A program made the translations under genes and the position numbers. Of a DNA stretch of 64,000 nt, positions 3,897 through 38,951 are shown piece after piece (position 1 is the stretch's first letter; each line of letters starts with the position of its first letter). Source of the stretch: Schmidtea nova (taxonomy: Eukaryota); contig CM097884.1 of assembly GCA_044892505.1 (NCBI GenBank), positions 40,176,001 to 40,240,000 on the forward strand, written 5' to 3'. The notes below the pieces were generated by a model. It was not told where the DNA came from, did no database searches, and saw only the letters and a program-made list of their open reading frames with translations.

Positions 3897-4197
3897 AATA
3901 AAATCGATTAGTAATAAGTTTTAATAAATTTGTTTAAAATATTTATTTTGTATTAATTTGTGCGCGGGTTAACCGCTTAACAATCTCTTTTAAACAATGG
4001 GCAATAAAATATACAAATAATAAAATTTTTACACATTTAATAATTCTTTCGCATAATCCTAAACAATGTACAATAAAATTTACAAATAATAAAATTTTCA
4101 CATGACTAACAACCTTTTTACAACTCCGATTCACACAATTTCGGAGGTACATAAAACACGCATGAACATCTATTTATGGTGTCCAAAGAACATTACA
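2580..4197 (-). repeat. 3' LTR (1618 bp)
   Basis: Direct repeat of 9182-10799. Confidence 0.95.
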
Positions 4198-4200
4198 TTA

Positions 4201-4210
4201 CCCCCCATCC
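4201..4210 (-). promoter_or_regulatory. Polypurine tract
   Basis: GGATGGGGGG 3 nt before the 3' LTR on the minus strand. Confidence 0.7.
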
Positions 4211-4286
4211 AGTAACGCGGAGCGTTTTTCTTAAAAGAAAACAAAAAAAAGATTTTAGAGGTGTTAGTATTGGTGCCCGCTCTAAG

Positions 4287-7784: not shown

Positions 7785-10498
7785 TTATTATACGAATTTT
7801 GATTAACTTTACTGGTATTGTGATTACCAGTATGGAAACGGCAGCCTTCCAAGCATGTTTTGGCCTCGGTCTTAAATATTGCGTGATAGATGCAAAGGTT
7901 GCGAGGCAGGCATGTTGGAAGTCGGTTGTTCCACCTACAACCGACATAGCAATGTTGGGCTTTGTCTCCATACGTCTTATGGTAGGAGCATATGAGCCCT
8001 CGTGCAGATGTGGACCGATGTCGTTTTTGATTGTTGTCACGACTGTCTGTTCGACTTCGACCTCGGGTGTGTAGACTTGCGTCTAAATTGTCCATCCTCG
8101 CTGTTAAAGCAGCTATGGCGCTGACTAGTGCTCCTAATTCGGCGTGTGGGAGGCTTGTTGTTGCGACTACCGGTGATGGAGTAACAGGTGACGTGTTGAT
8201 TTCCACGATCTTGTCGGCAATTTTGGCCAGTTCTTCCAATGTTGTGTTTGGAACAACGGCCAGAATGGACTGTGCTGATGTAGGTAGTGCTTTTAGAAAG
8301 AACCTACGGAGTAGAGCGTCGTCTTTGGTAAGACCAGCCTGGATCCTCTCGAGTTGTTCCTTGGCTCGCTTGAGGAAGGCGCTTGGTCTTTCATTATTGA
8401 GAGGTTGATTTCGGAACCAAGCCTCATATAAATGATCTAATTTTGGTCGGTAGGCGTCTAGCACTGCCGATTTCAGTGAGTTGTAGGGCTCACTTGCCGT
8501 GGCTGCGGTTGCAATGGCGGTGGACAATGTGGTGTAAATAGTGCTTGGAAGCATGGACAAGAGTGCACCAAACTTCTGCCCTTGAGATTGAGTGGGTAGA
8601 AAGGTTGGAGTCACTTCTAGTGCCAGGAACCACGTTTGTGGGGAGCCAACGCCGTCTAGGAAAAACGGTATTGGGGTAATAACTGGTGTTGTTTGTTGTG
8701 TTGGCGGTTGTATGTGACTGATTTCACAGTCTGTGTTAGCCTCATCAGTTTGCATTCCTCCAGTCAAACGGGGAATAATGTCGAAATAGGTGGTGATGAC
8801 TGGGGTATGTGTCGCCGATTGGGACTTCTTGACAAAGAAGTGGCGGTGTGTTTCCTTTGGGACGCCAATTGCTAGGAGCAATGAAGACATTGAGGACAAA
8901 TGTGACTTCGTCGGACACAGAGGTTGCCATCCGGAAGTCTTGTTAGGACACCGGAAGAGGAACTTGTGTGATACTTGTTTCCTCTTAATGTTTAAAAACC
9001 CGGTTGTTCTTATGATGTGGTTTCCATGTACCGTCAATTCAGTTAGTCCCGCCCAGGATTGTAGCGCCTTCATTTGGGAAGGAATAGGAAAAATAATAAA
9101 TGTGGGAATAGAATAAAATAAAGTGTTATTTAGGGTAATATAAATGTTACTGGAGGGAGGGAGTAACTTCTGACACCAATTTGATATACCGGAAACCACA
9201 CCAAGGTATTCAGATTTTTGGTGTGGTTGCCGATTCATCAATTTTATTTTTGTTCCCTGGCTGATTAATTTACATAAATTTACAAAAAAATATGAAGGTA
9301 CTTTAGTTTTGTCGGATAACAGGGAAAGTAGGATGCCGGGTCGAATCAAAGCTCTATCGAAACCATCGGGTAATCTCCCAACGAGGATCTCATAAGATTG
9401 AATATCCACGTAAAAACGATACACACATGGATTTGATAGTACAGTACATACGCTAACTACATTCACTTTCGGATCTTGATAGGACATCAACTGACAATAA
9501 AATCGTAATTTTCTTAAGATTAATAAGTTCATCATATAAGAACCTTCAAAAATGCATATTGTACAGACAATGAATACAAACAATCCGAAAATAATGTCGA
9601 TGTAATAATGTTGGACGATCATTGTCAAAGAACTATAGAGAGTAGCATTCAACATTAAAGCCATACCGGTGAACGGCATTTGGCCTTCCGACTTAAAACA
9701 TCTACTAGAAGAATCACTTTTAAAAGGTTCGAGCAATTCCCGGGCACTTAAACTCAATCTGCCATAACTATTCACTGAAACCGGATAACGGGGGCCTTTA
9801 AAGTCACTCAAGCACATTTTTGGAGTCAAAATAGGCAAGTTATCCACCAAGAACTCGATCCTTATTTCCCACGGGAGTTGATTAAATATCAATTTTAAAC
9901 GGAGAGATATATTCTGTACACATATTTCGATCTTTATAAATTTCTCTCTCTCGGTAACAAATTCAATGTTATCACTAAGATTGACATAAAAGTAGAGCAC
10001 AATAACAACTTTGGCATAGCATTGTTTATTAAAAATATTTAGTTTTAAAGTTTTAGATGGTTCCATAAATCCCTTCATTTCTAAGGCGACTATTTCTGGG
10101 ATTTCAGGCAGAATAATCACTGGCACGTTAGCGATGTAAATCGGCTGATAGCGCTTACCATGCGATTCAACTAATCTGCTGATTCCATGTTTATCATTGA
10201 TGCGGAAATATCCCGACATTGATTCCTTGTACTCCGTAGTGATGTATCCATAGGAATTGATAGGCACTTCCAAACATTTACCGTTAGTTGAAACTTTCAA
10301 TGGTCTGACATCTAGAAAGAATTTGTAATAAAAGACGTTTATTTTCCACTTCATATTGACAAATTCAACATTATAAGTTGCCGTAGCATTAACAGATTCA
10401 ATATTCCTGGCGATGTCTGTCAGTCTAATATCTGCTGGCAACAAGTTGTTTGTAAAGATACTGTGGATGAATTCCAAAATATAAATTAATTTTATCAT
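7769..10498 (-). CDS. gag: 909-aa LTR-ORF / Ubl / Gag fusion; Gag proper starts at Met582 (8755)
   Basis: Uninterrupted ORF crossing the LTR end and the PBS. PRLTGG precedes MQTDE. Gag motifs: PFFLDGVGSPQTWF, RPSAFLKR, FFLKALP, and two CxxHx9Cx3C knuckles. Confidence 0.9.
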   Translation of the reverse strand: MIKLIYILEFIHSIFTNNLLPADIRLTDIARNIESVNATATYNVEFVNMKWKINVFYYKFFLDVRPLKVSTNGKCLEVPINSYGYITTEYKESMSGYFRINDKHGISRLVESHGKRYQPIYIANVPVIILPEIPEIVALEMKGFMEPSKTLKLNIFNKQCYAKVVIVLYFYVNLSDNIEFVTEREKFIKIEICVQNISLRLKLIFNQLPWEIRIEFLVDNLPILTPKMCLSDFKGPRYPVSVNSYGRLSLSARELLEPFKSDSSSRCFKSEGQMPFTGMALMLNATLYSSLTMIVQHYYIDIIFGLFVFIVCTICIFEGSYMMNLLILRKLRFYCQLMSYQDPKVNVVSVCTVLSNPCVYRFYVDIQSYEILVGRLPDGFDRALIRPGILLSLLSDKTKVPSYFFVNLCKLISQGTKIKLMNRQPHQKSEYLGVVSGISNWCQKLLPPSSNIYITLNNTLFYSIPTFIIFPIPSQMKALQSWAGLTELTVHGNHIIRTTGFLNIKRKQVSHKFLFRCPNKTSGWQPLCPTKSHLSSMSSLLLAIGVPKETHRHFFVKKSQSATHTPVITTYFDIIPRLTGGMQTDEANTDCEISHIQPPTQQTTPVITPIPFFLDGVGSPQTWFLALEVTPTFLPTQSQGQKFGALLSMLPSTIYTTLSTAIATAATASEPYNSLKSAVLDAYRPKLDHLYEAWFRNQPLNNERPSAFLKRAKEQLERIQAGLTKDDALLRRFFLKALPTSAQSILAVVPNTTLEELAKIADKIVEINTSPVTPSPVVATTSLPHAELGALVSAIAALTARMDNLDASLHTRGRSRTDSRDNNQKRHRSTSARGLICSYHKTYGDKAQHCYVGCRWNNRLPTCLPRNLCIYHAIFKTEAKTCLEGCRFHTGNHNTSKVNQNSYNKPSEN
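9166..9178 (-). promoter_or_regulatory. Primer-binding site, tRNA-Leu type
   Basis: TGGTGTCAGAAGT, 3 nt after the 5' LTR end. Confidence 0.85.
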
Positions 10499-10799
10499 AA
10501 TAAAATCGATTAGTAATAAGTTTTAATAAATTTGTTTAAAATATTTATTTTGTATTAATTTGTGCGCGGGTTAACCGCTTAACAATCTCTTTTAAACAAT
10601 GGGCAATAAAATATACAAATAATAAAATTTTTACACATTTAATAATTCTTTCGCATAATCCTAAACAATGTACAATAAAATTTACAAATAATAAAATTTT
10701 CACATGACTAACAACCTTTTTACAACTCCGATTCACACAATTTCGGAGGTACATAAAACACGCATGAACATCTATTTATGGTGTCCAAAGAACATTACA
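9182..10799 (-). repeat. 5' LTR (1618 bp), containing ~440 codons of ORF
   Basis: TGTAAT...ATATCA; direct repeat of 2580-4197. Confidence 0.95.
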
Positions 10800-12255: not shown

Positions 12256-13332
12256 TGTTCGGTTCGTATCAGTGGTTTACGACGAACACAGAAATATAAA
12301 TATATATTTGATACTTTAGTTTGATTATCGGACTCCAAACGATAATCCGCTTATTAATTATAAATAAATTATATGTTTTAGGTTGTGTGTAAAGAAAAAC
12401 AAGATCTAATTCCTTTTAATAATATGTATTGTGAAATATGTAAATCAATGTACAATATAATAAAATAGCTGCTAAGCAAAAGTTAGAGAATCGGTTATAC
12501 AAACCGTCCTAAGATGTTTAAGAACGAAAGCTGGACCTAAAAGGCTCAACAGCTCCGACTAAATGAAAGGACACAAGATGAGGGGTTTCCCTGTAGTTTA
12601 ACCGCGATAGTGACAACCCAGAATTGGTTGTCACTGTGACTTAATAATTTTCCCTTCTAATAATTTATTATTTAACGATTTTGCTGAAGGGGAAAAATAG
12701 TAATACAACTATTTCCCCGTGATCGATTTATAAGATTTAAAACAAAACTAGGAAAATTACCAGCTACTAAAGATTATTCCAATTTAGGGAAATTATCACG
12801 AACGAAATTCAAGCTAAGCTTCTTGTAATACTTCTGCCGTAAAATTAATTTCTCCAATTCACAAATTTGTCAAACTAAAATTCTAAAATTCACTTCGGTA
12901 AAATTTATGTTCTGTAAACACTTATGTTTCTCTCTCTACTTCTGTCAAAATTACTTTCTGTTTCAACTGATTTTGCAATCAGTTTATATACAAATTATTT
13001 TCTCTCATGTAGGTCTAGACGACCACCTATTACTAACTACGTGTAGGTCGAAATTGACCTTACAAAATATTACTTTTAAAGTAATTTATTATTACTATAT
13101 ATATCTTATTATTACTATTTAAATTTCTTATGTATTTATTTATTACTATATTTATTATATATTATTTAATTATTACTGTATTTAATCTATATTTATTTAT
13201 AGTAATTATTTATTTATTTTCTATTTATCTATCTATTTATAGTATTTTTTTTAATTACTATTTATATTTATTTATTTACTTATAATATTTAATTACAAAA
13301 ACCCCGAGATCCCTTGATCTCGAACCCTAACA
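12256..13332 (-). repeat. 3' LTR (1077 bp)
   Basis: Direct repeat of 26138-27214. Confidence 0.96.
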
Positions 13333-13334
13333 TG

Positions 13335-13344
13335 TCTTCCCCCT
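13335..13344 (-). promoter_or_regulatory. Polypurine tract
   Basis: AGGGGGAAGA 2 nt before the 3' LTR. Confidence 0.75.
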
Positions 13345-13627: not shown

Positions 13628-15592
13628 CTAGTTATCCTTCGCGAATAGGTTTTGAGCTGCTCTCTTGCGAATATGCGCTTGCTCGTTCTTGATGCGATCT
13701 TCCACTATATCTGGTCTATAGCTGACCACCAATGTTTCGCGTGTTTCGACTTCCTTATATACCAAAGACGAAATCACGTATGATTTTCCGTTGGCCTCCA
13801 ATACGCCATAGTAAGGGAAGTTTGAAACTGATGATTGGTGTACCGGTTTCCCGTCGTATTCTTTTATCCGAGGTACCCAATTTCTCTCTGGTCGCTGCCA
13901 AAAACTAGGGTCTTCATTGTCCAAATCCTGGGGTATCTTTGCTGAATTTCCCGTTCCAACGAAATCCCCTTCTCTTATAATAATAGGTTCGCCCTTAACC
14001 TCCGGAATCTGTTCCATATCGGGTGGGATGAATGCTGTTTCGATTAAATCTTTGTCTTCCGTCGAGATGGGATTTGGTACTTTCTTTTTGATCTTTAGAT
14101 CTTGTAACCTTACAACAGGTTCTTGACTTTTCTTTGGGGGTGACTTTTCTACTGAAGTCAATTTTTTAAAAGTCTTAGTAACTTTTTCCAAGAGCTTGTT
14201 CTCTTTCTTTGGTGGATTTTCTGGCACGATCTTTGTAATTGTACGGCTGTCTCCGTGTAAAGTTAAACGCATCTCTGTTTGCTCCTCACCCTCGCTTTCG
14301 CAGGTGGCGTAATCGTCTTCATCAGCTAAGGATATAGCTGGAGGGGATAGTGATTCTTCCTCAACTATCTTTTGCAATTTGGTTGATAATGGTTGTTCCT
14401 GGGGTAAGCTCTCAATAGCTTTCCTTTTACTCGTTTCTTGTGGCTGTATTGTATGAACCATTTTGACTTCTGATGTAATCGTCCCACTACGATTACCTGG
14501 GGTAATGTCATCTACCCAAACTTCTCTCAGTTTAAGGTAAATATTACGTGTCGTTTCCACGTCATTTTCCGTTTTCAGATCTGAACGGTTTAGTTCTTCT
14601 TTTTCGAGAATTGACTTTGATAAATACGCGAGTCGATAATGTCCGTTACATTTCTTTAGTTCTCTCGCTTCCAGGCATTTTGCTGCTCCTAGTTCTCTAA
14701 TGCCCAATACTCGTTGAGGGTGTAACTGGACTGCTTCCAAGAAATCGTTGACTTGGAGACCTATTAGAATTTTCCCATCACATAATTTTCTAATACGGTC
14801 TGCGCAATCCTCTCCATCAAATTGTCCGATGATTTCTTTTTCGGTCATACCATGCGCGTGCGATTGGTAATGTTTGACCTGGTTTCTGGGTGTAACCACC
14901 GTGTTTAGTATTAAATCACCACAGTAGTTTGCTATCGAAACAGCCACCAAAGCTGGCTTTAAATAATCTCGCAAAGTTGCGTAATGCGCTGCAACAAATA
15001 TTGACAATCTATCTTCTTGATTGGGGTGCAGATTCATCCGAACAAAGGATTTGAATGATTTGAGATCGTTCTCATTCACATTATAGGTCCAGGCAGGTTC
15101 ATTTTTCCACAATGATTGCACTGCCTTGCTAGGTTCCAAAATCTCTAATACCACAATAGTATTATATCCGTCACATTGGATGGAGATATTCTTTTCTCTG
15201 CCATCTCCGTTACTAATTTCTAGAGTTGATTCTGGTTGAAGTAGGATGGGTCCTGTGGCTCCTGCCATGAAGATTGTAAAGGGTTTATTGATCGCGTGAA
15301 TCAGGAGATGGTGAGTAAATGTTGATCTGTTAAATTCCGCCATGTGTTCAGTCAACCGGGTGTTCTCACGGCTGGTAATTGTGACTATGCACATTTGTCT
15401 CTTAGGCGATCCGAGAAACTTAAAATTGTTTGGGATGCCGGTGCAGTGCCCGTAATACCAATAGCGACGACCTTTCCGTGCTTCTGCGGATATCGCTTTT
15501 TCGATGTTTCGATAAATCAGTTTTTCCTTCTGTACTGTTTGCACATCGATAGTGCTATAACGCTGCTTGTATTGTGACACTTGATGCTTCAT
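13628..15592 (-). CDS. Accessory ORF2 with REX4/ISG20-like DEDDh exonuclease-fold domain (ExoI acidic residues absent); likely from a spliced mRNA
   Basis: ALVAVSIANYCGDLILNTVVTP..VKHY....HGM..KILIG..ENDVETTRNIY resembles REX4 motifs. A strong acceptor TTTTTCTTTCAG lies 2 nt before the ATG at 15592. Confidence 0.75.
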   Translation of the reverse strand: MKHQVSQYKQRYSTIDVQTVQKEKLIYRNIEKAISAEARKGRRYWYYGHCTGIPNNFKFLGSPKRQMCIVTITSRENTRLTEHMAEFNRSTFTHHLLIHAINKPFTIFMAGATGPILLQPESTLEISNGDGREKNISIQCDGYNTIVVLEILEPSKAVQSLWKNEPAWTYNVNENDLKSFKSFVRMNLHPNQEDRLSIFVAAHYATLRDYLKPALVAVSIANYCGDLILNTVVTPRNQVKHYQSHAHGMTEKEIIGQFDGEDCADRIRKLCDGKILIGLQVNDFLEAVQLHPQRVLGIRELGAAKCLEARELKKCNGHYRLAYLSKSILEKEELNRSDLKTENDVETTRNIYLKLREVWVDDITPGNRSGTITSEVKMVHTIQPQETSKRKAIESLPQEQPLSTKLQKIVEEESLSPPAISLADEDDYATCESEGEEQTEMRLTLHGDSRTITKIVPENPPKKENKLLEKVTKTFKKLTSVEKSPPKKSQEPVVRLQDLKIKKKVPNPISTEDKDLIETAFIPPDMEQIPEVKGEPIIIREGDFVGTGNSAKIPQDLDNEDPSFWQRPERNWVPRIKEYDGKPVHQSSVSNFPYYGVLEANGKSYVISSLVYKEVETRETLVVSYRPDIVEDRIKNEQAHIRKRAAQNLFAKDN

Positions 15593-15778
15593 ATCTGAAA
15601 GAAAAATAATTAACGTTAATATCAGATATACTGATAGGCCAATATTGGCTAAAAAGAAATGCATAAATCTCGATTTACGGGATCTACTTATGCTGTAAGT
15701 TAATGCTACTCGGAGCTCAACAAGATTATAGATTTTAATATATATATAAATACAAATATGCGATTTTATCTGTAATTG

Positions 15779-18700
15779 TCATAATCTCGTCATCATAATC
15801 CCATCAACCGACTCAATGGCCTGACTGAAGAATAGTTTCATCCAAACTCCCATTGCTATCAATGTAGTGATCATAGCTAATACTGCTGACGTAATAATCC
15901 ATACCCCAACGGGTAATTTTCCCAAGTGAGTAATGGGGTTTACTTCATTAACTTCACACTGACAACTTTTAATATAGCTTTCTGTTGATACTGTTGGTTT
16001 TACCATTTTCAATCCTTTCAATCTCTGCCATATTGCAGGATGAATGACGTAACTTTCTTTCCGTATCAATGATGTAACCGATTTCATTGTCGTCGATGAT
16101 TGTGGTAATTTCAAAGAGATAACTTCATAAAATACCTCATTCCATTCATCGACTCCTGGCTTTTGTTTATTATTCATATAAGTGATATGAGCTTCCCACT
16201 CCACTGAGCTGTTCCACTTGAGATTTTGTTTCTCAATATCTTCATTTAGCCACAATTCTTGTACTATTTCCTTGTCGGAATGGATTTCTATCTTTACTCT
16301 ATCCACTCCTTGTTTTGGTTGGCTGAAGGTAATCATACCTTGTTGGATATTTATTCTAACTTTCCTTTTGAAATCTGCTGTCTTCAACTTCCATTGTGAC
16401 TTTGAAAAATCTGACCATCGTCCAAACATAAAATGTTGAACAAGTATATCTAACAGATATTCCTTTTCTGCTCGTAAGTCCTTTATGACTTTCACTCTTG
16501 TGTTTGAATCCAATGTAAAATGGAAACAACGTCGTTCGCAAAACGAGAACTTGAATTTTGTATCATTTTCAGCTAATGATATTATCCTAAATTCCTGGAA
16601 AGATCTTCTAAATGCGAGATCTTGAATTTGTACCGCTGTTGGAACAAATGTCTTTACACAGGATATAAGGCAACTTATTATTACCAAAAACGTAACTGAT
16701 TTTGGCACGCCTCTTGATCGTAATGGATATCTGTCTGAGACTGGTTCTGACCCTTTATCCTCCTTTTTCTTAATCGGATCTTTCTCCGTGACCGCAACTT
16801 TCTTGCATCTGTTAGCATGTACCATTATTGGTTCAGCTTTTCTATTTGCTACTAATTGCAAGATTAAATTCGTGTCTGTGGTTCTCAAAACCTCATATGG
16901 TCCTTTGAAGTTTCTCATTAATTTAGGTGATAAGCCCTTTTTATTATAATGGCTTTCCAACATCACCTTGTCTCCAACTAACATGCCATGTCCTTTGGCT
17001 TTCTTATCATGATAATCTTTCGACGCTTCCTGACTGAATTTTATACTAAGACCTGCTTTTGTCCATGCTTCTTGCATTCTTTCTCTCATTTCCATGAGAT
17101 AATCCTCTTGGTCTAAATACTGCGTTGCTTTTGGGAAAAACAACAAGTCTATAGGCATTTTACTTTGCCTTAAATACATGAGATAGAACGGCGTTTGTCC
17201 CGTACCCTCATGAACAGCATTTCTGTATGCGAATAGGCATGATGGAATATGTATATCCCAATCCGTTTGCCCTGAATTTACGTATGATGCTAGCATATTT
17301 GCGAGCGTTCCGTTAAATCTCTCTACCAATCCGTCTGTTTGTGGATGGTATGGAGAGGTATTCAGTTTTAAAATGTCGAAATAATCATTTATTCCTTTTA
17401 GCAGATTACTCATGAAATCTGCTCCTCTATCTGTTAGTAGTTTTGTAGGTACTCCATACCTAAAAACAATTTGCTCTACGAAAATCCTGGCTATCGTATC
17501 GGCCTTGTGATTCGGTATCGGATAAGCCTCCGGCCATTTCGTCAAGTAATCGCAAAATACCAATATGTATTTGTTACCACTATTTGACTCTTTGAATGGC
17601 CCTAAAACATCCATTGCCGTCATTTCCATCGGTGTGGATGGTACTGGCATTGGTTTCATTGGCACATGCGGTTTCTTCCCCGTATTTCTCCTGGTGATAC
17701 AGATCTTACATGTCTGACACCATTCCTGTACGTCTTGTTTGATTGTCGGCCAGAAATATTTCTGCTTCAACCTTGACAATGTTTTCCTGGAAGACAAATG
17801 CCCTCCCAGTGCTCCATCATGATATTGTAACATCAAAGCTTCGCGATATTTCTTAGGGACCATTATGACATTATCCCTTACGTCTACATATTTGACTAAT
17901 CCTTCTTCTAGAATAAATTTGTCTCGATTTTTCTCCCAATATTTATTAAATTCCGTCGGTATGAACTTTGCTTCTAAAGCCTGTCTGATTTGGTTTATCT
18001 CTTCATCCGATTGTTGTGCTGCCATTAAATCCGCGAGTCTGTTTGCTTCTCTTGTAAGTGCGAAGATTGTTCCTTCTAATCTTCCTTCCTTAACGTCTTC
18101 TGCTTCATCACCCTGGTCCATTCGAGAAAATGCATCTGCATTCCCATTTTGGTGTCCTTTTCGGTAATGTATTTCGATGTCGTATGGCTGCAAGATCAAT
18201 GCCCATCTAACCAATTTTGATGTGTCCATAGTATGCTTTGTTAACCACTGTAATGGTCTATGATCCGTATACACAATGATCTTTCGACCCCATAAATATG
18301 TCCTGAATTGGTGTATAGCATACACAATTGCTAATGCTTCTAATTCGATAACTGCGTAATTCATTTCATGTGGTTTTAATCCTCTGCTAGCATACGCTAT
18401 GGCATATTCGTCTCCTAGGTCATCTCTTTGACCTAACACAGCACCAATACCCCGAGTGCTGGCGTCCGTCATGACCAAAAATTGTTTCTCAAAATCTGGA
18501 AACCGTAATATAGGAGGTTCCACGAGCATCCTCTTTAGCATATCAAATGCTTCCTGTTGTTCTTTTCCCCATACAAATTTGACATTTTTGCCCTCTAATT
18601 GTGTCAGAGGAAATGCTATTGCCGAAAAGTTCCTGATGAACTTTCTATAATATCCCACTAAGCCCAAAAACCCTTTTATATGTTTGACTGTCTTTGGCTC

Positions 18701-21700
18701 TGGAAAATTCTTTGCTTTCTCAACATTTGCTGGATCTGGTTTTACTCCATCCTTCGAGATAATGTGACCGACATAGACTACCTCTGATTCGGCCCATTTA
18801 CATTTCGATGGTTTTACCTTAAGATTTGCATTAATTAACCTTTTGAATACGTCCTCTAAATGTTCTAAATGTTTTTCCAAATCTGGAGAAAATACTATGA
18901 TGTCATCTATGTATACCATTGCATGATGAACATCCATTAACATTAGATTCATGGCTCTTTGAAACGTTGCCGGCGCTCCTGTGAGACCAAATGGCATTAC
19001 TGTATATTCGAAGTGTCCAAGGCTTGTAGAAAAAGCCGTAATTGGTATTGTCTCCTCTTTTAACTTGATTTGGTAAAATCCCTTCTGAGCATCCATCACT
19101 GAGAAATATTTTGAATTTCTCATGCGTCCGTAAATGTAATCCAGTAATGGTAATGGGTGACTATCCTTGCAAGTTGCTTCGTTTACCATTCGATAGTCGT
19201 TGCATAGTCGTACCGTTCCATCCTTTTTGGCCACCACTATCATTGGTGACTGGTATGGTGATTTACTATGCCTGATGATGTTATGTTTTAACATCAGTTT
19301 TACCTGCTTATCGACAGGTTCTTCCAAGCTAAACGGAATTCGATACGGTCTCAGTTTTATTGGTTTCGTGTTGTTAAGAACAATTTCATGTTCCAACAAG
19401 TTCGTCTTTCCCAGATCATATTCGTGCTTGGCGAATACTTGATCATATTTTCTTAATAACATGTTGACTTGGATATTCTCTCTTCGTGAAAGAGCTTTGC
19501 TATTTGCCGTTGGCGCATCATAGTACTCGATGTCTGATTCTCTATTTTCTGCCTTTATTGTCAGGACAGATCCTCCATTTGGTAATTGATCCGACTTTGA
19601 TACTCTCCCTACTCTTGTATCTGGGTACAATTTTAATGGTTTTATATCTAAATTGGCTACCCGAATTGGTATTCTGCCATTTTCAACTTTACCAATGCTA
19701 TGCGTAATTGGTAGATTATATTTTGCTGAGAACCTTTCATCTGGTTCGAATACAACTTCTCCTTCCCACTGTTCGCTAGTGGACACGAAACATACTGTTT
19801 CTGCTCTGGGTGGTATTATCATCGTATGGTCGATGAAAACTGTATCATCATTATAAACTTTTCTTTTCTTACCGATTGATCTAACTAACAATCCGGTAGC
19901 ACAGTCAAATACAACTCCTTTTAATCTTCTTAAAAGATCCATTCCTAGTAGACATTCTACTGGACAAGTTCTCATGACTATAATATCATGACGAAATTCT
20001 TGGTCACATAGCTTGATGTTACAAGCTAGAGTACCAATAATATTCAATGATGTGCCTGTAGCACCTGTTAGCGAAACTCTTGAGGTTTCCATTGATTCCA
20101 ATTCTTTTTGATTTAATAGTGTTGCCTCTATGATGGTGCCGTCTGCTCCTGAATCTATCACTGCATTAACTGTGTGTCTGTTTATTTTTATCTTTATCAT
20201 GGGTTTCTTATCCAAGTTCACCCCATTTGCCATCAAAATAGTAGCATGCGTTATCCCGATGGTATTTGCTCTGAATTTCTCTGCTTCATCTTGTTCGGTA
20301 TCACTCAATTTTGGATTATATTCCTTAAATTTAGCTTTTATTGCTTCTAACGACTCGATAGGATACAGTTTCCCTTCATTTTCTAACGATAATGATATGC
20401 TTTTACCAGTCTCTCGAGCATCTTTGTCGAGAATTTGTTGATGTTTAGAAATGTACATTTTGTTTCTTGGAGTGGTTAAAGCATAATTTTGTTTGCCCTC
20501 TCCTGATGTCTTTTGAAACTCTGGCGATTCCCCCTTTGGCGCTGTTGGCAAGCTTCTAAGATATGGTAATTGCATATATCTTGGGCTTCTTTTCAATCTA
20601 GGTGATGCTGTATTGATTGTAAATTTCTGGTCTGCACTATCGTATTCATCTTCTGAAATCATACTTTTGTCGAAAATCTGTTTTGTCGCTTCGTAAGGTG
20701 GTTGATAATCCCGATATTTCATTTTCCTTAACTGATGATTCGGTTTTTTATTGTAGTTTCTTTTTCGACTTCTACTTTGCCTCTGAACTGTATTAAGAGA
20801 GTCTCCATTACCTCCTCCTTCCGAATTGTTATCGTCCCGATAACTTGTATTACCCTCCATTTCGATTCCAATAATCTCGTGTTTTACCAAGCTTCTCTGT
20901 TTGATTGTCTTTATTTCTTTACGATGATGTTTAAACAATGCAAATTCCGCACACATAGGACACAATCCTAGTATCAACTTCCAAGACCATCCACCGATTT
21001 TGAATATACTGTATGTGGAGATTAATTGTGTTATTATTAACTTTAGAATTACGAATATTGCATATATTCCTGAGCAGCCTGCCACGAAAATACCAAAATT
21101 GGTAAACCTTCCCCATATTTTCATCATCACATTTTTAGCTGCTTCTTTATAATGATCTGGACCGAATAATAAATTGTAATCTGGTCTCATTTCGTTTGCT
21201 TGGTAAATTGTTCTTATGATTTCAGTGATACCTCTTTCTCTTACTTGAGGGAATAGCAATGTCTGTCTTGCCTCCTCAATGTCTGCTGAAGTGTAAATTC
21301 CTCCTTGTGATAATTCATCGAGTGATTTAAATTCCATGTTTTCCTCGAGTTTCGTGACTTCCAATGTTTCCACCTTTCTATTAGATGGTTTTCTGTCAGG
21401 TAATGAGATCCATCTATCATTTACCTTGTATAACGGTGATATTGCTGGATTGCAAATTGAAGGTTGAGGCTTTTGTTTTTCATCCAAAAGTCTCCTCGTA
21501 ACTGGCATTACAAATCGTATTTTGTTTTGATATGACACTGGTAATTCTAGAGTACATTCATTATACCGAGTTAATTGTACCTCTATGGGTTGACATTGAT
21601 AGCTGTATATAGCTTCCCCCATAATTCTGCCAAACATTCCATCTTCTAGCAACATAGGTGTCACTAGATCCGGATTCACAATTGATATCGCTAATCGATT

Positions 21701-24700
21701 TCGAACTATTTCGCGATTTAGTTTGCAATCATTGAGTATTACTTCCTGATACATTTCCTGCATTTGTCCTTGCAGATCATGATATAAATAATCTATTTTA
21801 TTATTTATATAGTTCGTGATTTTGATATCCTGGCTGTGAATATTCTTGGCTTTTTGGATGAATGTTTTTGACAAATATAATCCTTTATAGTTGGTCTCAT
21901 ACACCACTTTTCCGCATTTTGTCTTCTTATCTTTTCTGACAAATCTGATTGCATCTTTCTTATCTTCTGATACTAATACTAGAGGTGTGATTTCCTCACT
22001 AATATCCTCTTTTTGCTGTTTGTTGATCCTTTTCAACGTCTTTTCTTTATCCCAAATTCTTTCTCTTTTGGGTAAATCTCGATACTTTGTCCCGTTCAAC
22101 TTATGGAAATTAATTTTCTTTAGTAATGACAATTCGCAATGGTCTAGTATTTGATCGTATAATAATGTAATGACCCCTGTTCTGCAGCTTCCAAATTTCG
22201 CAAGGCACTGAGGGTGTGCCATTAATCTTCCTGATAATACATCGAACGTTCCTTCGTATTCTCTTAATTCGATTGAATAGTCCTCGATATCTACGACAAA
22301 ACTTACCAACTCCGATCCGCGAGTTTTCTTTCTTCCCGTACAGGTACCATCTGATCCGATTGATCCTCCTCGTGTAATGGTTACTCCCAGTGTTTTTCCT
22401 ACTTCCGCGGCGATGGTTACCTCGTTATCGATTCTTAAAGTACCTTTTCGAAAGGCGTCTAGACAATCCTCTGGCAATATGTTGACAGGTCTAGGTATTA
22501 GAGTGGCTGATAGAAAAGCTGTATAGCTGTGTGAACCACAATAATATTCAAACGTTGCTCTTTGGACTCTACATTCTCTTATCTTAGTTCTGAAGAATTC
22601 ACTTTCTTGGTAGACATAGTATTCGACCTTTTCTCCTGTTTGGACCTTTTCTGGATATGCCTCTTTGCACTCAATTGCATCTACGAGCGAATATATCCGA
22701 GCTAACTTTGGATCACTGCAATCAAACGCTGTCATTGTGTTTGTCTGTTTCATTATCCCCATCATTACTAAAAACATTAATATCATATTCGTCATATTCC
22801 CCATTCCTCCATTTTCGAGGTGGTTGTTATTCATAGCCTCTTCCACAAATTCATATCGTGGTTTATGTTTCTCCTCTTCCCAGAAATTATTTTCACTCAT
22901 CCACGTTCCGAGATAATGCTCCGTTATCTCCGTGATCTGGTCTATTTCTCGATTAATAAGCTTCTTCTCATTGCCTGCGCGGGCTAAAGCATCTTGAATC
23001 AACATAGATAATGCTGTCACTATTTTTCCTTTAGATAACCCATCTTGTATGAGTGTCTCTAACATACTCTGTATCTCGTTTTGCGGTACCCCTCTAGGTA
23101 ATCTCCTCATCGTCTTCGCGATTGACTGTGTTACTTTATCCACTTGAATTCCTTTAATCCGAGTAATCTGCCATTCTGGCTTTAATATTCCTATGATCTG
23201 TTTTAATCTCTTCCATGTCAGAGATTTTTCTGGTATATGTACACCTTCGTCTCTCATATCAACATCCCTGGCTATTCCTGACAGAGTTTTCATCTGAACC
23301 TGTTTAATGGTTTCTTGGTTTAATTGCTCCGTTGGTGGAGGTTTCATTTGATCTTTCCTAGGCCTTCCTCGCCTATCTTTCTTTGTCTGCCATGCTGGCC
23401 TGATAGTTTCTACCGCCTGAGAAGTTGAAGCTCCCACGTTAGTTTCCTCATTATTGAGTCTGATTTCCTCTTCTCCGTGATTATCGGCATCGATATCTAC
23501 ATTAAATGGTTGTGTTTCAACATTACCAGTGACCATTTCATCTGGTAACCGTAATGCTGACCATTGAGATTCAGGTGGCTCTACGGGAATGATTGCTACC
23601 GTTGTAGTTTCAAAAGGTAGACATCCCACATCTACTAAATATTCATCATCATCCACTTGTCCTCCATGAATCATAATCAAGAATATACCGGTAGTCTGCC
23701 CAGTATCTATTAAATCCTTTCTCAACGTTATCACTTTGCTAAAACAACGATATAACCTCGTCATGGGTTCTTTTCCCGATATTCGAATGTCTAAAGTTAT
23801 CATGCCTTGTCGATGTGCTTGATGACGTATTGCTGTTCCATTTTTTCTCATTAACATTTTTATTTCTGTTTGAAAAGAACTAGTTTCTTTTACTACAGGT
23901 AGTAATATAGGAATTATATTCTCCAATGATTCTACTGGTATGCGCAATACCAACATCCAGTCTAATATTTCCTTGATTGTTTCTCCATCCCTCGGAGATT
24001 TCTGCAGCTCTATCTTCAGACGTTGCTCTATTTGTTGGACCTCCTCCAACTGTGCAATTTCCATTTGTGTGAGTAGAAACACACTGTCTTGATCCACTAC
24101 TGGGACCGATATTCCTGTCAGTTTCGTTGTGAGTTTCGTTACCCTTCCTGGTAATACACCATTTTGTAGTAGTGTTTCCCCAACTACTAACTTTTCTCCA
24201 TATAAATAAAAATCATATCTATTATGTTTCAATTTCATCATTGTATCTGACAACTTATCTGTTCGACATCTTACATTCATGTCGATGTTAAACTCCTGCT
24301 CCTGAGGAAGTTTTATGTTTAAATGCGAATCCTGAAGATCCCATTCATGCTCCATTGCAGTTCCTATCTTTCGTAGGATTTTATGTATGTCGCTATTATA
24401 CCTTGGATCATCTTCGACCTGAGATATTAATTGTAATATCTTTCCAATTTCACTATTCTTGATATCACCTTGTGATAATTTCTCTAATTCTCTAGTCAGT
24501 CTCTGCTGATACTCATATCTGGAATCCACCAGTTTTAAACATTTTGCTAGGGTATCTGACCCTTTCTTGGCCTTTGTTTCCTTGAACAAAGCCTGGTCGA
24601 ACTCGCTCAGTATGGTACTCATACTGGGTTCGTCATCATTATCAGAATTTGTCTCTGATTCTATTACCTCATGATTCTCGCTGCTGGAATCCATGGGTTC

Positions 24701-26056
24701 ACTATTTCCTTGCTCATCTGTGTAAGCATCATGATTTTTCTCAGCTGAAATCATCAAAACTGTTCCTTGCCCAACTGTGTGAGCATCATCGCTTTCCTCA
24801 ATGGGATTCATTATAACTGTTCCTCGCCCATCCATGTGAGCATGATTTTTCTCAGCTGAAATCATAAAAACTGTCTCTTGCCCAACTGTGTGAGTCTCAT
24901 TTATTTCTTCAATTTTATTCATCAAAACTGTTCCTCGCTCATCTGTGTGAGCATGATTTTTCTCAGCTGAAATCATAAAAACTGTATCATCTCGATCCAT
25001 TAGCCGTGCTAATCGATTTTTCTCCTCCTGGATTTCCATTTCCAGTTGTTGCAAATACGTCAATTCTTTATCGTGATTGACCATGAACGTAGTTTTCGGC
25101 TTGCTGACATTACCACTATTGGTAATCCTACTATTCGTATTATTACTCTGATTTTGAGGACACGACCTCAGAATATGCCCGAATTTTCCACATCCGTGAC
25201 ATTTTATCTTCCCTGATGAATTCACATCATCCCTTTTAATATTAAAATTCCCATTCGTTGGGAGATTCCTAACTCTACAAACGGAAGCAACATGCCCTCT
25301 GCGTTTGCATTTATCACACTGCAAGTTCGTGACTCTACAGTTCTCAACACTATGATTATTCATACCACATTTAGTACACTGAATACCCCTACGAGTATCA
25401 GCTACCTTCTTACTGTGGCAATCTTTTGATATGTGCCCTTTCTTATGGCAGTTAAAACATTCAATTGCTGGCTTCTCATTATTTACCATAAATGATGTAG
25501 CTTTTTCTAAGCTGCTTTCGATTACGACAGCTTTTCTTGTTAATTCCCAAAAATCATCTCCCGTGTGGAGAATCAATGCATTTCTCATTACATTTGTGAA
25601 TCCAGCTAATAATTGGTCTTTAACCATAGCTTTAGTTGCATCATTCCAGGTAGTTCTGAGCCCAAATGCTCTTTCTGCTAATAACAATAATTGATAGGAA
25701 AATTCTCCTACATGTTCATTTGCATTCTGCTTCCTGTGATAAAATTGTTGTCGGAAAATTCTACTTGAATCTCCCGGTAATATTCTAGCCGTTAGTGATT
25801 CTCTCATCTTTTCCCATGTACCTGGTTTATCTGCTGCTGGTAACGCCATAATATCATTGTAATTTTCCCTTGCCATACCCTTAAGGTAAATTGGCAGTCT
25901 TTGTATCATTATTGCATCTGGATACCCATAGGCCTTTGCCATCTGATAATACTCTGACATAAACTCCGGAAATTCCCCTGGATCTCCGCTAAATGCCTTG
26001 ACAGGTAAAGCGGGATATCTAGCAAAAACATTATTCTCTTCAGCCATGTCCTCCAC
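15779..26056 (-). CDS. gag-pol: 3425-aa polyprotein: Gag (CA, 4 CCHC), repeats, 2x(helical+Ubl), AT-hook, chuvirus/gB-like glycoprotein, protease, RT, RNase H, integrase, second membrane protein
   Basis: Four CCHC knuckles (~25160-25460), RGRPRK, hydrophobic signal then AFDC (~22720), TM (~20930-21100), VIDSGAD, YIDDII, MTDAS, HHCC, DDE core, YPLRSR plus signal, C-terminal TM. Confidence 0.93.
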   Translation of the reverse strand: MEDMAEENNVFARYPALPVKAFSGDPGEFPEFMSEYYQMAKAYGYPDAIMIQRLPIYLKGMARENYNDIMALPAADKPGTWEKMRESLTARILPGDSSRIFRQQFYHRKQNANEHVGEFSYQLLLLAERAFGLRTTWNDATKAMVKDQLLAGFTNVMRNALILHTGDDFWELTRKAVVIESSLEKATSFMVNNEKPAIECFNCHKKGHISKDCHSKKVADTRRGIQCTKCGMNNHSVENCRVTNLQCDKCKRRGHVASVCRVRNLPTNGNFNIKRDDVNSSGKIKCHGCGKFGHILRSCPQNQSNNTNSRITNSGNVSKPKTTFMVNHDKELTYLQQLEMEIQEEKNRLARLMDRDDTVFMISAEKNHAHTDERGTVLMNKIEEINETHTVGQETVFMISAEKNHAHMDGRGTVIMNPIEESDDAHTVGQGTVLMISAEKNHDAYTDEQGNSEPMDSSSENHEVIESETNSDNDDEPSMSTILSEFDQALFKETKAKKGSDTLAKCLKLVDSRYEYQQRLTRELEKLSQGDIKNSEIGKILQLISQVEDDPRYNSDIHKILRKIGTAMEHEWDLQDSHLNIKLPQEQEFNIDMNVRCRTDKLSDTMMKLKHNRYDFYLYGEKLVVGETLLQNGVLPGRVTKLTTKLTGISVPVVDQDSVFLLTQMEIAQLEEVQQIEQRLKIELQKSPRDGETIKEILDWMLVLRIPVESLENIIPILLPVVKETSSFQTEIKMLMRKNGTAIRHQAHRQGMITLDIRISGKEPMTRLYRCFSKVITLRKDLIDTGQTTGIFLIMIHGGQVDDDEYLVDVGCLPFETTTVAIIPVEPPESQWSALRLPDEMVTGNVETQPFNVDIDADNHGEEEIRLNNEETNVGASTSQAVETIRPAWQTKKDRRGRPRKDQMKPPPTEQLNQETIKQVQMKTLSGIARDVDMRDEGVHIPEKSLTWKRLKQIIGILKPEWQITRIKGIQVDKVTQSIAKTMRRLPRGVPQNEIQSMLETLIQDGLSKGKIVTALSMLIQDALARAGNEKKLINREIDQITEITEHYLGTWMSENNFWEEEKHKPRYEFVEEAMNNNHLENGGMGNMTNMILMFLVMMGIMKQTNTMTAFDCSDPKLARIYSLVDAIECKEAYPEKVQTGEKVEYYVYQESEFFRTKIRECRVQRATFEYYCGSHSYTAFLSATLIPRPVNILPEDCLDAFRKGTLRIDNEVTIAAEVGKTLGVTITRGGSIGSDGTCTGRKKTRGSELVSFVVDIEDYSIELREYEGTFDVLSGRLMAHPQCLAKFGSCRTGVITLLYDQILDHCELSLLKKINFHKLNGTKYRDLPKRERIWDKEKTLKRINKQQKEDISEEITPLVLVSEDKKDAIRFVRKDKKTKCGKVVYETNYKGLYLSKTFIQKAKNIHSQDIKITNYINNKIDYLYHDLQGQMQEMYQEVILNDCKLNREIVRNRLAISIVNPDLVTPMLLEDGMFGRIMGEAIYSYQCQPIEVQLTRYNECTLELPVSYQNKIRFVMPVTRRLLDEKQKPQPSICNPAISPLYKVNDRWISLPDRKPSNRKVETLEVTKLEENMEFKSLDELSQGGIYTSADIEEARQTLLFPQVRERGITEIIRTIYQANEMRPDYNLLFGPDHYKEAAKNVMMKIWGRFTNFGIFVAGCSGIYAIFVILKLIITQLISTYSIFKIGGWSWKLILGLCPMCAEFALFKHHRKEIKTIKQRSLVKHEIIGIEMEGNTSYRDDNNSEGGGNGDSLNTVQRQSRSRKRNYNKKPNHQLRKMKYRDYQPPYEATKQIFDKSMISEDEYDSADQKFTINTASPRLKRSPRYMQLPYLRSLPTAPKGESPEFQKTSGEGKQNYALTTPRNKMYISKHQQILDKDARETGKSISLSLENEGKLYPIESLEAIKAKFKEYNPKLSDTEQDEAEKFRANTIGITHATILMANGVNLDKKPMIKIKINRHTVNAVIDSGADGTIIEATLLNQKELESMETSRVSLTGATGTSLNIIGTLACNIKLCDQEFRHDIIVMRTCPVECLLGMDLLRRLKGVVFDCATGLLVRSIGKKRKVYNDDTVFIDHTMIIPPRAETVCFVSTSEQWEGEVVFEPDERFSAKYNLPITHSIGKVENGRIPIRVANLDIKPLKLYPDTRVGRVSKSDQLPNGGSVLTIKAENRESDIEYYDAPTANSKALSRRENIQVNMLLRKYDQVFAKHEYDLGKTNLLEHEIVLNNTKPIKLRPYRIPFSLEEPVDKQVKLMLKHNIIRHSKSPYQSPMIVVAKKDGTVRLCNDYRMVNEATCKDSHPLPLLDYIYGRMRNSKYFSVMDAQKGFYQIKLKEETIPITAFSTSLGHFEYTVMPFGLTGAPATFQRAMNLMLMDVHHAMVYIDDIIVFSPDLEKHLEHLEDVFKRLINANLKVKPSKCKWAESEVVYVGHIISKDGVKPDPANVEKAKNFPEPKTVKHIKGFLGLVGYYRKFIRNFSAIAFPLTQLEGKNVKFVWGKEQQEAFDMLKRMLVEPPILRFPDFEKQFLVMTDASTRGIGAVLGQRDDLGDEYAIAYASRGLKPHEMNYAVIELEALAIVYAIHQFRTYLWGRKIIVYTDHRPLQWLTKHTMDTSKLVRWALILQPYDIEIHYRKGHQNGNADAFSRMDQGDEAEDVKEGRLEGTIFALTREANRLADLMAAQQSDEEINQIRQALEAKFIPTEFNKYWEKNRDKFILEEGLVKYVDVRDNVIMVPKKYREALMLQYHDGALGGHLSSRKTLSRLKQKYFWPTIKQDVQEWCQTCKICITRRNTGKKPHVPMKPMPVPSTPMEMTAMDVLGPFKESNSGNKYILVFCDYLTKWPEAYPIPNHKADTIARIFVEQIVFRYGVPTKLLTDRGADFMSNLLKGINDYFDILKLNTSPYHPQTDGLVERFNGTLANMLASYVNSGQTDWDIHIPSCLFAYRNAVHEGTGQTPFYLMYLRQSKMPIDLLFFPKATQYLDQEDYLMEMRERMQEAWTKAGLSIKFSQEASKDYHDKKAKGHGMLVGDKVMLESHYNKKGLSPKLMRNFKGPYEVLRTTDTNLILQLVANRKAEPIMVHANRCKKVAVTEKDPIKKKEDKGSEPVSDRYPLRSRGVPKSVTFLVIISCLISCVKTFVPTAVQIQDLAFRRSFQEFRIISLAENDTKFKFSFCERRCFHFTLDSNTRVKVIKDLRAEKEYLLDILVQHFMFGRWSDFSKSQWKLKTADFKRKVRINIQQGMITFSQPKQGVDRVKIEIHSDKEIVQELWLNEDIEKQNLKWNSSVEWEAHITYMNNKQKPGVDEWNEVFYEVISLKLPQSSTTMKSVTSLIRKESYVIHPAIWQRLKGLKMVKPTVSTESYIKSCQCEVNEVNPITHLGKLPVGVWIITSAVLAMITTLIAMGVWMKLFFSQAIESVDGIMMTRL
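24715..24995 (-). repeat. In-frame 111-bp tandem repeat (MISAEKNH units)
   Basis: ctcagctgaaatcat recurs at ~24740, ~24851 and ~24962. Confidence 0.85.
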
Positions 26057-26116: not shown

Positions 26117-26134
26117 ATCACGTCGGGCTCACCA
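26117..26134 (-). promoter_or_regulatory. Primer-binding site, tRNA-Trp type (18 nt)
   Basis: Plus strand ATCACGTCGGGCTCACCA matches the eukaryotic tRNA-Trp 3' end ATCACGTCGGGGTCACCA at 17/18. Confidence 0.85.
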
Positions 26135-26137
26135 AAA

Positions 26138-27214
26138 TGTTCGGTTCGTATCAGTGGTTTACGACGAACACAGAAATATAAATATATATTTGATACTTTA
26201 GTTTGATTATCGGACTCCAAACGATAATCCGCTTATTAATTATAAATAAATTATATGTTTTAGGTTGTGTGTAAAGAAAAACAAGATCTAATTCCTTTTA
26301 ATAATATGTATTGTGAAATATGTAAATCAATGTACAATATAATAAAATAGCTGCTAAGCAAAAGTTAGAGAATCGGTTATACAAACCGTCCTAAGATGTT
26401 TAAGAACGAAAGCTGGACCTAAAAGGCTCAACAGCTCCGACTAAATGAAAGGACACAAGATGAGGGGTTTCCCTGTAGTTTAACCGCGATAGTGACAACC
26501 CAGAATTGGTTGTCACTGTGACTTAATAATTTTCCCTTCTAATAATTTATTATTTAACGATTTTGCTGAAGGGGAAAAATAGTAATACAACTATTTCCCC
26601 GTGATCGATTTATAAGATTTAAAACAAAACTAGGAAAATTACCAGCTACTAAAGATTATTCCAATTTAGGGAAATTATCACGAACGAAATTCAAGCTAAG
26701 CTTCTTGTAATACTTCTGCCGTAAAATTAATTTCTCCAATTCACAAATTTGTCAAACTAAAATTCTAAAATTCACTTCGGTAAAATTTATGTTCTGTAAA
26801 CACTTATGTTTCTCTCTCTACTTCTGTCAAAATTACTTTCTGTTTCAACTGATTTTGCAATCAGTTTATATACAAATTATTTTCTCTCATGTAGGTCTAG
26901 ACGACCACCTATTACTAACTACGTGTAGGTCGAAATTGACCTTACAAAATATTACTTTTAAAGTAATTTATTATTACTATATATATCTTATTATTACTAT
27001 TTAAATTTCTTATGTATTTATTTATTACTATATTTATTATATATTATTTAATTATTACTGTATTTAATCTATATTTATTTATAGTAATTATTTATTTATT
27101 TTCTATTTATCTATCTATTTATAGTATTTTTTTTAATTACTATTTATATTTATTTATTTACTTATAATATTTAATTACAAAAACCCCGAGATCCCTTGAT
27201 CTCGAACCCTAACA
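26138..27214 (-). repeat. 5' LTR (1077 bp)
   Basis: Direct repeat of 12256-13332. Confidence 0.96.
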
Positions 27215-28833: not shown

Positions 28834-29349
28834 GGGCTAAATAGTAGTACAATATAAATTTAATACAAGTTTTACGGTGAAAAAGAAATTAATTATAATT
28901 ACCTTTGATTTTTTTCAATTCTTTGATTTGAAAGCTTTACTAACAATTTCGCAATAACAAATTTTATCGATTTTTTATTCTATTTAAAATTTTATTCTAT
29001 ACATAATTTAAAATAATTTTCACTATCCGATAATCGCGAGTATATTTGAGCGGATACCGAATACGGATTTTTGTCTGCAAATTCGCGGATATCGGATACA
29101 GATAATCCGAACCGTCAAACTCTACTCTTAAAACAAAAAAAACAAACATTAATTCAACAACATTTATTACTACAGATAAATCAAATCAATACACAAAACA
29201 ATTCAGTCATTAATACACAGAAAATTCAATTATTGTTATTCATCGTATTGAGTTTCGTCACGGTCGCTCCTTGGATGGTATTTGATGTTGCCTTAACCCT
29301 TTCGTCGGCAAGCATCTGTTTCAACTGTAAGCGCCTTTGTGCATGGTAT

Positions 29350-36285: not shown

Positions 36286-37094
36286 CGTCATTGTCTGTGT
36301 GCAGCCAATCAGATTCTTGCACATGTCTTGTAAATCAATTGCACATGTCTTGCTAATCGATTGGATATGTATTAATAATTGACTTTGTATGCATGTTGAT
36401 GATTATCTACTGCAATTTCTTTCTATATTTATATTGTAAGTTATTTACATATCTATCGCAATTTTATTGTCTATCGCAATTTTATTGTCTTTCTATTTAT
36501 TATTATTATTACTGTCATTATTATTACTAATATTACTATTATTAATAATATTACTATTACTAAAATTATTTTCCCTTATTATTTTCAATAAATATTCAGC
36601 ATCAACATTTTATAAAAATTAATTTTAACTACAAAACATCTTTCATAACTCGGTACGTTTTAAGAAAATAAATACTTTATAAAAAACTTAATAAAAAGAC
36701 ATTTTAACTATAAAAATATTTATTGTTCTAAAAAGTTTCTTAACTCCTGTTGGAGTAACCATTTGTGAGTCCTATTGACGCAACTTTAGCATCTATAGGC
36801 ACAGATAATGCTGGCGCTGCATTCTTCTTCTTCTATATTATGTTGATGGTCGAGCAACACCTTGTTGAGATCAATTCCGGTTAATGCCAATATTTTATAA
36901 GGAAGGAGCTCTGGAGCGCAGTAAACCAATTCGCGCATAAGTTTTGGGTACAAATCCTCCATTTTTTCAAGCAGAACGCTCATCAGTTTCTCTAAAAACA
37001 AAAGAACGCATTAATAAAAATTTCTAATCAAACGTATAGATCGAAACCTTATTGATGGGACTGTGAAACCGAAAATACTTGTTCATCATCAACA

Positions 37095-38938: not shown

Positions 38939-38951
38939 ACTACCAATATAA

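Follow-up and report, generated by a model that had tools for sequence, protein, structure and literature searches.

The second gene (ORF2) of a complete Ty3/gypsy LTR retrotransposon is predicted to encode a two-domain protein in which a 2OG-Fe(II) dioxygenase-like fold is followed by an ISG20/REX-type DEDDh exonuclease-like fold, with the catalytic residues of both largely or entirely gone. The element lies within the 64-kb window, that is, the whole stretch of DNA that was analysed. With a probability of roughly 0.4, ORF2 is read as a double pseudoenzyme that would bind RNA without catalysis and would either shield the RNA of the element or sequester silencing RNAs, while those relatives with an intact nuclease site would trim. 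The original prediction had described an accessory ORF with an ISG20-like pseudo-exonuclease; the fold and the residue losses were both recovered, but the description was incomplete, the second, N-terminal domain having been overlooked. ORF2 and its parts were placed as follows.

13628..15592, minus strand: accessory ORF2, 654 aa (ATG at 15592, stop ending at 13628), second gene of the element
15125..15592, minus strand: ORF2 residues 1-156, 2OG-Fe(II) dioxygenase-like double-stranded beta-helix without an HxD/E...H triad
14498..15025, minus strand: ORF2 residues 190-365, ISG20/REX-type DEDDh pseudo-exonuclease
13823..14491, minus strand: variable tail of ORF2, charged and Pro/Ser/Thr-rich, with small basic clusters
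13706..13810, minus strand: short C-terminal motif common to close relatives, found by alignment

Homologues, folds and catalytic residues of ORF2

Relatives of ORF2 were obtained from an exhaustive homologue search only; it yielded 98 proteins with E ≤ 0.001, of which 37 had E ≤ 1e-10. A word-indexed search with either the ORF2 protein or the alignment as query returned nothing, Pfam assigned no family to the ORF2 protein alone, and two scans of prokaryotic genome contigs found nothing related to either ORF2 or the polyprotein. Because the query was itself a dead protein, the search favours dead relatives that retain non-catalytic residues; all relatives are protein sequences alone, none being tied to a retroelement through DNA context. 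The set used for alignment and modelling comprised 67 sequences (66 of the 98 matches and the ORF2 protein itself). An AlphaFold model generated over both domains from this alignment had a pLDDT of 93.5 and a pTM of 0.90; the fold of ORF2 as a single sequence was useless (pLDDT 30). Atlas searches gave no usable match for residues 1-180, and RNase_T clusters with scores < 0.9 for residues 1-367. The variable tail had no Pfam match and is probably disordered. A profile of the C-terminal motif recovered its 6 seed relatives and P0055 among 44 tails and was weak elsewhere.

A DEDDh pattern had been proposed at about 14530-15015, together with a profile (HMM) search as its check, and this search agreed: a profile of 31 sequences matched ISG20L2 (E 4.9e-28), ISG20 (1.2e-14) and SDN1 (9.5e-11). 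By phmmer, ORF2 residues 214-361 were aligned to ISG20L2 (7yw5) at E 5.3e-5. The predicted fold of this domain is DnaQ-like and of the DEDDh (REX/ISG20) type, closest to ISG20L2 (Z 18.7, rmsd 2.5, 158 aligned, 17% identity) and ISG20 (Z 18.4), with the next best structure at 14.4; Exuperantia was also among the structural matches (Z 10.2). The catalytic columns read A201, H203, F284, L339 and D344, so that four of the five positions are replaced. ExoI is IFVAAHYA, as had been claimed, with A201 and H203 in place of the catalytic Asp and Glu, and the ExoIII His is indeed missing (L339). The ExoII Asp column is occupied by F284, adjoined by an Asp at 283, and the ExoIII Asp (D344) is the sole catalytic residue retained. 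Judged from these residues, ORF2 is expected with high confidence to be without nuclease activity.

The N-terminal fold was read from the two-domain model, not from the domain folded alone. Residues 1-156 were matched to ALKBH1 (Z 11.0, rmsd 3.3, 139 aligned), P4H (10.9), ALKBH6 (10.7) and ALKBH7 (10.5), the ALKBH1 match covering the double-stranded beta-helix with the N-terminal strand and helix of the AlkB/2OG type. Among the best 50 rows of the wide structure search, those belonging to the N-domain were all 2OG-Fe(II) oxygenases (Z 9.4-11.0 over ~140 residues). Foldseek returned ALKBH7 (E 3e-4), an RmlC cupin (5.5e-4) and, in the range 3-6e-4, ALKBH6, and the viral structure library returned plant RNA virus entries for a replicase or polyprotein as well as 2OG-oxygenase entries. 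The modelled fold thus supports assignment to the 2OG-Fe(II) dioxygenase superfamily; since the ALKBH and P4H rows tie within 1 Z, the scores do not resolve a subfamily. Comparison of the N-domain by hhalign with 1 and 6 bacterial AlkB sequences, a shallow template, gave a probability of 0.1%.

Across the 57 rows with an N-domain, no conserved column corresponded to the HxD/E...H iron triad; just 4 rows had an H-x-D/E string in the stretch concerned, and it made up no conserved column. H99 is the only conserved His of the domain and is followed by hydrophobic residues. Nor did conserved columns of the last strand correspond to the RxxxxxR 2OG-binding motif, columns 145-152 being hydrophobic except for E150. 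Because both sets of columns are absent, the N-domain is, on the modelled fold, taken to be a pseudo-dioxygenase in all of the family that was sampled, perhaps with a pocket of a new kind. Other positions are well kept (n = 57: P54 in 52, N55 in 45, K58 in 38, R65 in 32, H99 in 48, and E150 in 48 with Asp in a further 6).

Catalytic residues of the nuclease were counted in 58 rows, 9 partial rows having been dropped from the 67. All five residues (D, E, D/E, H, D) are kept in 37/58 and at least three are lost in 21/58, with no row (0/58) having lost only one or two; RNase_T matched 31 of the 67 rows. The family is therefore old, and the dead form is either derived or an alternative within it. 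A captured, dead domain had been proposed at first; a recent capture that then decayed does not fit the 37 relatives that look catalytically intact and is rejected. The relatives nearest to ORF2 in the tree (P0003, P0004, P0007 and P0005) share ≤ 37% identity with it and are all dead, so the dead state is old. When the catalytic columns were included in the tree, the dead members all fell on one side of one branch; when they were removed, parsimony required 5 changes. When the two longest branches were omitted, the test did not reject a single origin of the dead state (p-AU 0.146), and repeated loss of the nuclease residues is for this reason not claimed.

The catalytic His is present in none of the 21 dead members, which hold the other conserved residues as well as the intact members do (P235, R236, D259 and G297 in 21/21; R299 and W359 in 18/21). 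These residues are better matched by selection on a pseudoenzyme than by decay, and ORF2 is very likely functional and under selection. The column of the ExoI Glu is K, R or H in 11/21 dead members against a background of 17.6%, in rows that are related and hence not phylogenetically independent; a basic residue here would be expected if phosphate were still bound without metal.

The carrier element and its envelope

The element carries the LTRs, primer-binding site, polypurine tract, target duplication and PR-RT-RH-IN order of Ty3/gypsy GAG-ENV-POL errantiviruses. Its features outside ORF2 and the junction were placed as follows.

27214-12256, minus strand: complete Ty3/gypsy LTR retrotransposon with two genes, the second being ORF2
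26138..27214, minus strand: 5' LTR, 1077 bp, TG...CA, 100% identical to 12256-13332
26117..26134, minus strand: tRNA-Trp-like primer-binding site, after the 5' LTR
15779..26047, minus strand: polyprotein, 3422 aa in a single ORF (Gag, spacer, Env, PR, RT, RH, IN, extra membrane unit)
25160..25459, minus strand: Gag zinc knuckles, four CCHC
20903..22795 (start approximate), minus strand: Env, chuvirus-like (Monjiviricetes) fusion glycoprotein with a TM helix (PF24664)
17000..20212 (lower end approximate), minus strand: protease, RT, RNase H plus integrase in Ty3/gypsy order (Pfam)
15839..16711, minus strand: post-integrase unit of a signal-like helix, a ~260-aa domain and a TM helix (hydropathy)
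13335..13344, minus strand: polypurine tract, ahead of the 3' LTR
12256..13332, minus strand: 3' LTR, 1077 bp, from comparison of the LTR pair

Both flanks of the element carry ATAT, a 4-bp target duplication. The identical LTRs and the two unbroken ORFs indicate that the insertion is recent. The first 12 nt of the primer-binding site have 1 mismatch to the tRNA-Trp 3' end listed in supplement 1 of PMC13524379. An Rfam search of the element returned zero families, and no recognisable host gene was found among the ORFs of at least 80 aa outside the two LTR elements of the window, a subset of these having been scanned further.

The pol part of the polyprotein matched the Pfam families RVP, RVT_1, RT_RNaseH, Integrase_H2C2 and rve. 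Env, located after gag and upstream of the protease, matched PF24664 at E 5.1e-89; its TM helix was called from hydropathy, and a comparison with the PDB gave no sequence match. The post-integrase unit had no Pfam match. In the ENA protein P0101 the domains are those of the polyprotein (48% identity in env, 50% in pol), and its post-integrase unit is laid out alike without significant similarity to that of the element.

ORF2 had been placed in the slot where env normally sits. Replacement of env is ruled out by the polyprotein itself: a fusion glycoprotein is already present between gag and pol, so ORF2 is not a stand-in for env. Elements of nematodes, flatworms and bryozoans with a GAG-ENV-POL order and a gB-type env have been described (PMC13524379), and in the planarian Burro env lies in frame between gag and pol (PMC6431247), as it does here. 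On the available text of these two papers, the carrier is therefore of a known kind, and ORF2 again no env substitute; neither text, as far as available, describes a downstream dioxygenase-exonuclease ORF or a second membrane unit after the integrase, and "nuclease" as the start of a word has 0 occurrences in the available text of PMC13524379.

Proposed routes of expression at the polyprotein/ORF2 junction

Two signals lie between the genes, and the sequence separating them is open.

15773..15781, minus strand: polyprotein stop TGA followed by CAA TTA, a CARYYA readthrough motif
15593..15778, minus strand: T-rich open linker of 186 nt (62 codons) joining polyprotein and ORF2 in frame
15595..15630, minus strand: candidate 3' splice site with branch-like motifs, a T-rich tract and TTTCAG

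A polypyrimidine/CAG acceptor had been reported to end at 15595, 2 nt before the ATG at 15592. The AG at 15595 does lie two bases ahead of that ATG and ranked first of 1168 AG dinucleotides in the element on a simple and crude pyrimidine score. The branch-like motifs were read by eye against the branch consensus. The sequence did not permit a choice of splice donor. Two candidates were noted by eye: a GTGAG that overlaps the primer-binding site, and a GTAAAT at 15678, use of which would remove an in-frame intron of 84 nt. A Met is found 30-66 residues ahead of a conserved Pro in 34 of 53 relatives, a position that fits independent initiation of ORF2; 15 of the 53 have longer N-termini.

A comparable acceptor is found in Cer1 of C. 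elegans, in which an accessory protein is spliced through the same TTTCAG (PMC10309623). That protein, CERV, is a non-env accessory ORF lying after pol and ahead of the 3' LTR, a slot like that of ORF2, and is needed for export of genomic RNA. ORF2 might by analogy be a Rev- or CERV-like regulator that binds unspliced genomic RNA in the nucleus, licenses its export and balances spliced against unspliced forms, a role that would suit a strong acceptor which unspliced RNA must retain, and also the small basic clusters of the ORF2 tail. Such clusters are however short and common, and the likeness to CERV consists of slot and acceptor; in the available text of PMC10309623 CERV is described without homology outside nematodes, and no fold is known in common with ORF2. 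An export regulator would also leave the full nuclease site in 37/58 relatives without explanation, and this role is considered unlikely.

The polyprotein stop and its CARYYA motif, which was noticed after the fact, constitute a cassette in which the next ORF follows in frame with no stop between. A stop followed by CARYYA is rare: of the 7885 stop triplets in the whole window only 14 have this context, and within the element 8 of 887. The linker was open in only 118 of 20000 shuffles (0.6%), and it would encode one hydrophobic helix whose hydropathy of 2.41 was matched by 15 of 359 open shuffles. In a mammalian reporter the CARYYA context gave ~15% readthrough, and it is functional with UGA (PMC4132726); in SIRE1 the ORF downstream of pol is expressed by stop suppression (PMC2829016). 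SIRE1 and TMV-type CARYYA systems (PMC2829016, PMC4132726) resemble the junction in having a leaky-stop context (in SIRE1 at the end of pol) with the next ORF in frame; the differences here are a UGA stop, a 62-codon linker, and a strong acceptor with a separate ATG. Given that UGA-CAA-UUA is in frame with ORF2 over an open linker, readthrough would rival or supplement splicing.

These features could also be those of a particle-associated replication aid, in which ORF2, appended by readthrough and either membrane-tethered or packaged, would chaperone or trim RNA, primer and cDNA ends. Against such an aid, the linker is non-coding-like in composition (T 0.40 and GC3 0.24, compared with T 0.22 and GC3 0.40 in ORF2), windows of similar GC elsewhere were open at 5.3% (1178/22082), a hydrophobic N-terminal extension was found in only 3/53 relatives, and no significant RNA structure was detected downstream of the stop (z -1.3). 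The linker helix could moreover put ORF2 on the luminal side. A replication aid of this kind is accordingly rated slightly below the export regulator.

Expression by splicing, as originally proposed, was thus borne out as regards the acceptor and was incomplete in that an in-frame UGA-CAA-UUA route coexists with it. Judged from the junction, ORF2 is somewhat more probably expressed by splicing or trans-splicing alone than by all other routes; use of both splicing and readthrough appears a good deal less likely, and readthrough alone would be improbable, as would an internal promoter or another route.

Proposed role and related systems

Under the double-pseudoenzyme reading, most of the ORF2 protein would come from a subgenomic RNA joined by splicing to the 15595 acceptor, with translation starting at the ORF2 ATG, and UGA readthrough would supply a lesser form. 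The dead exonuclease cleft would grip RNA 3' ends without cutting, and the beta-helix, packed against the exonuclease fold, would give a second surface for binding nucleotides or methyl marks. ORF2 would in this way shield the RNA of the element from host small-RNA and decay machinery, or sequester that machinery, and intact relatives would do the same job through trimming. Inactive DEDD derivatives that retain RNA binding include Maelstrom and EXD1 (PMC5408684), and ORF2, which falls outside both the DEDDh and the AlkB enzymes, may by analogy work like such proteins. ORF2 probably binds nucleic acid; that its role is counter-defence is a tentative proposal, put at a little under even odds. 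The antiviral role of ISG20 in vertebrates is no evidence for ORF2, the surroundings of which appear to be invertebrate.

A wider proposal concerns the accessory family as a whole, taken to be widespread, in which a modified-nucleotide reader derived from a dioxygenase would be joined to a 3' exonuclease. Host silencing RNAs that carry a mark would be recognised and then destroyed by the intact members or sequestered by the dead ones. In this element the protein would exist in a free spliced form and as a particle-borne readthrough form, so that counter-defence would travel with the enveloped particle; this we regard as doubtful.

The retention of both folds with loss of both active sites could also suit a protein decoy, mimicking a host nuclease and a host demethylase and titrating their partners without binding nucleic acid. 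ORF2 is far from the host enzymes (17% identity to ISG20L2, no AlkB signal by hhalign), which makes it unlikely that surfaces for the partners have been kept, and a decoy is improbable. Still less probable is an enzyme with a rebuilt site (D283, E342 and D344, or H99 with E150) for non-canonical catalysis or metal binding. Acidic residues do remain near the exonuclease site, and H99 and E150 are conserved across the family; against this, the two ExoI ligands are gone, as is the general-base His, and the H-x-D/E string never forms a conserved column. A once-active gene drifting towards loss as a passenger would account for the long branches of the dead members but is scarcely credible, as all 654 codons of the ORF are open, dead relatives at 28-36% identity still conserve non-catalytic residues, and there are no intermediate states.

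The exonuclease-like domain (residues 190-365) shares its fold and sequence pattern with DEDDh exonucleases of the ISG20L2/ISG20/REX type (7yw5, 1wlj) and with plant SDN1 (5z9x), from which ORF2 differs in its four replaced catalytic positions of five, its fused dioxygenase-like domain and its encoding by a retroelement. A 3'-5' exonuclease ORF also occurs in some nematode BEL elements. In the bdelloid LTR elements Juno and Vesta, the env slot is likewise occupied by an exonuclease-fold accessory ORF (PMC5408684). This ORF3 is an RNase D-like DEDDy enzyme with intact residues that stands in place of env, and, in the available text of that paper, has no clear link to copy number. ORF2, in contrast, is DEDDh-type, dead and two-domained, and belongs to an element with its own env; nor is its family RNase D-like DEDDy with intact residues, the DEDDh His being present in 37/58. 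A 2OG-dioxygenase fold in an extra ORF is also found in orchid Ty3/gypsy AlkB elements (PMC9289625), where HxD/E...H and RxxxxxR are kept and the protein is active and close to host ALKBH. ORF2 is without these motifs, has an exonuclease fold attached, and showed no sequence similarity to AlkB in the hhalign comparison with bacterial sequences.

A literature search that covered few subscription papers and no repeat-database entries returned no paper on a dioxygenase-fold and DEDDh fusion in a retroelement. The ORF2 family is apparently undescribed, accessory exonuclease and AlkB ORFs being already known separately. ORF2 unites in one protein these two enzyme folds, known as accessory genes from rotifers (exonuclease) and orchids (AlkB). 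At the polyprotein/ORF2 junction, splicing and stop-codon readthrough may compete for a single gene, which is open to test, and the family provides natural intact (for example P0009) and dead pairs of one two-domain protein, a test of whether binding or catalysis is the selected trait. Few element-encoded counter-measures are known that could help envelope-carrying retrotransposons to remain active in the face of piRNA and decay pathways.

Insertion site and neighbouring elements

The env-carrying Ty3/gypsy element was located within a hAT-type transposase gene (27706-28836 and below 12256), which it splits into a BED finger part on one side and a C-terminal-like part on the other. An assembly gap of 467 N lies outside the element, at window positions 29613-30079. 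Inverted repeats of approximately 850 bp were found at 35494-48173, bracketing fragmented pieces of a family B DNA polymerase along with other ORFs, which suggests that this region is a decayed Polinton-like element.

Additionally, a second Ty3/gypsy element was observed at 2578-10799 on the minus strand. Its LTRs are 1620 bp long and 99.9% identical to each other, and each contains an ORF of roughly 450 codons with a hydrophobic stretch, for which a Pfam search returned no match. From the 5' LTR, this ORF continues in frame across the primer site and into gag (ORF 7769-10522).

Splice-like sites and internal repeats of the env-carrying element

Within the primer-binding site, a donor-like GTGAG (26127-26133, minus strand) is created by a single difference from the tabulated tRNA-Trp end; the simpler reading of this mismatch is a host tRNA variant. 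The runner-up to the candidate acceptor of the accessory ORF was an acceptor-like site within each LTR (26566 and 12684, minus strand), which could serve as a leader or trans-splice site. Acceptor-like sequence was also present in the following feature:

24673-24967, minus strand: a tandem array of three units, each approximately 111 bp long, 3' of the Gag zinc knuckles

Each of the three copies carries a TTTCAG, as well as a motif similar to the boundary motifs of protease, RT, and integrase.

Predicted post-integrase membrane unit and related polyproteins

The related polyprotein P0102 has the same env as the env-carrying element, and several protease-like domains in tandem. Beyond its integrase, the element itself encodes a further fused unit:

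15839-16711, minus strand: second predicted membrane protein, with a signal-like helix, a domain, and a TM segment

No match to this unit was obtained in a Pfam search. The same post-integrase layout (signal-like helix, domain, TM) was found in P0101, an ENA polyprotein with the element's domain set, without significant sequence similarity between the two. The unit could be an attachment protein that acts as the partner of the fusogen.
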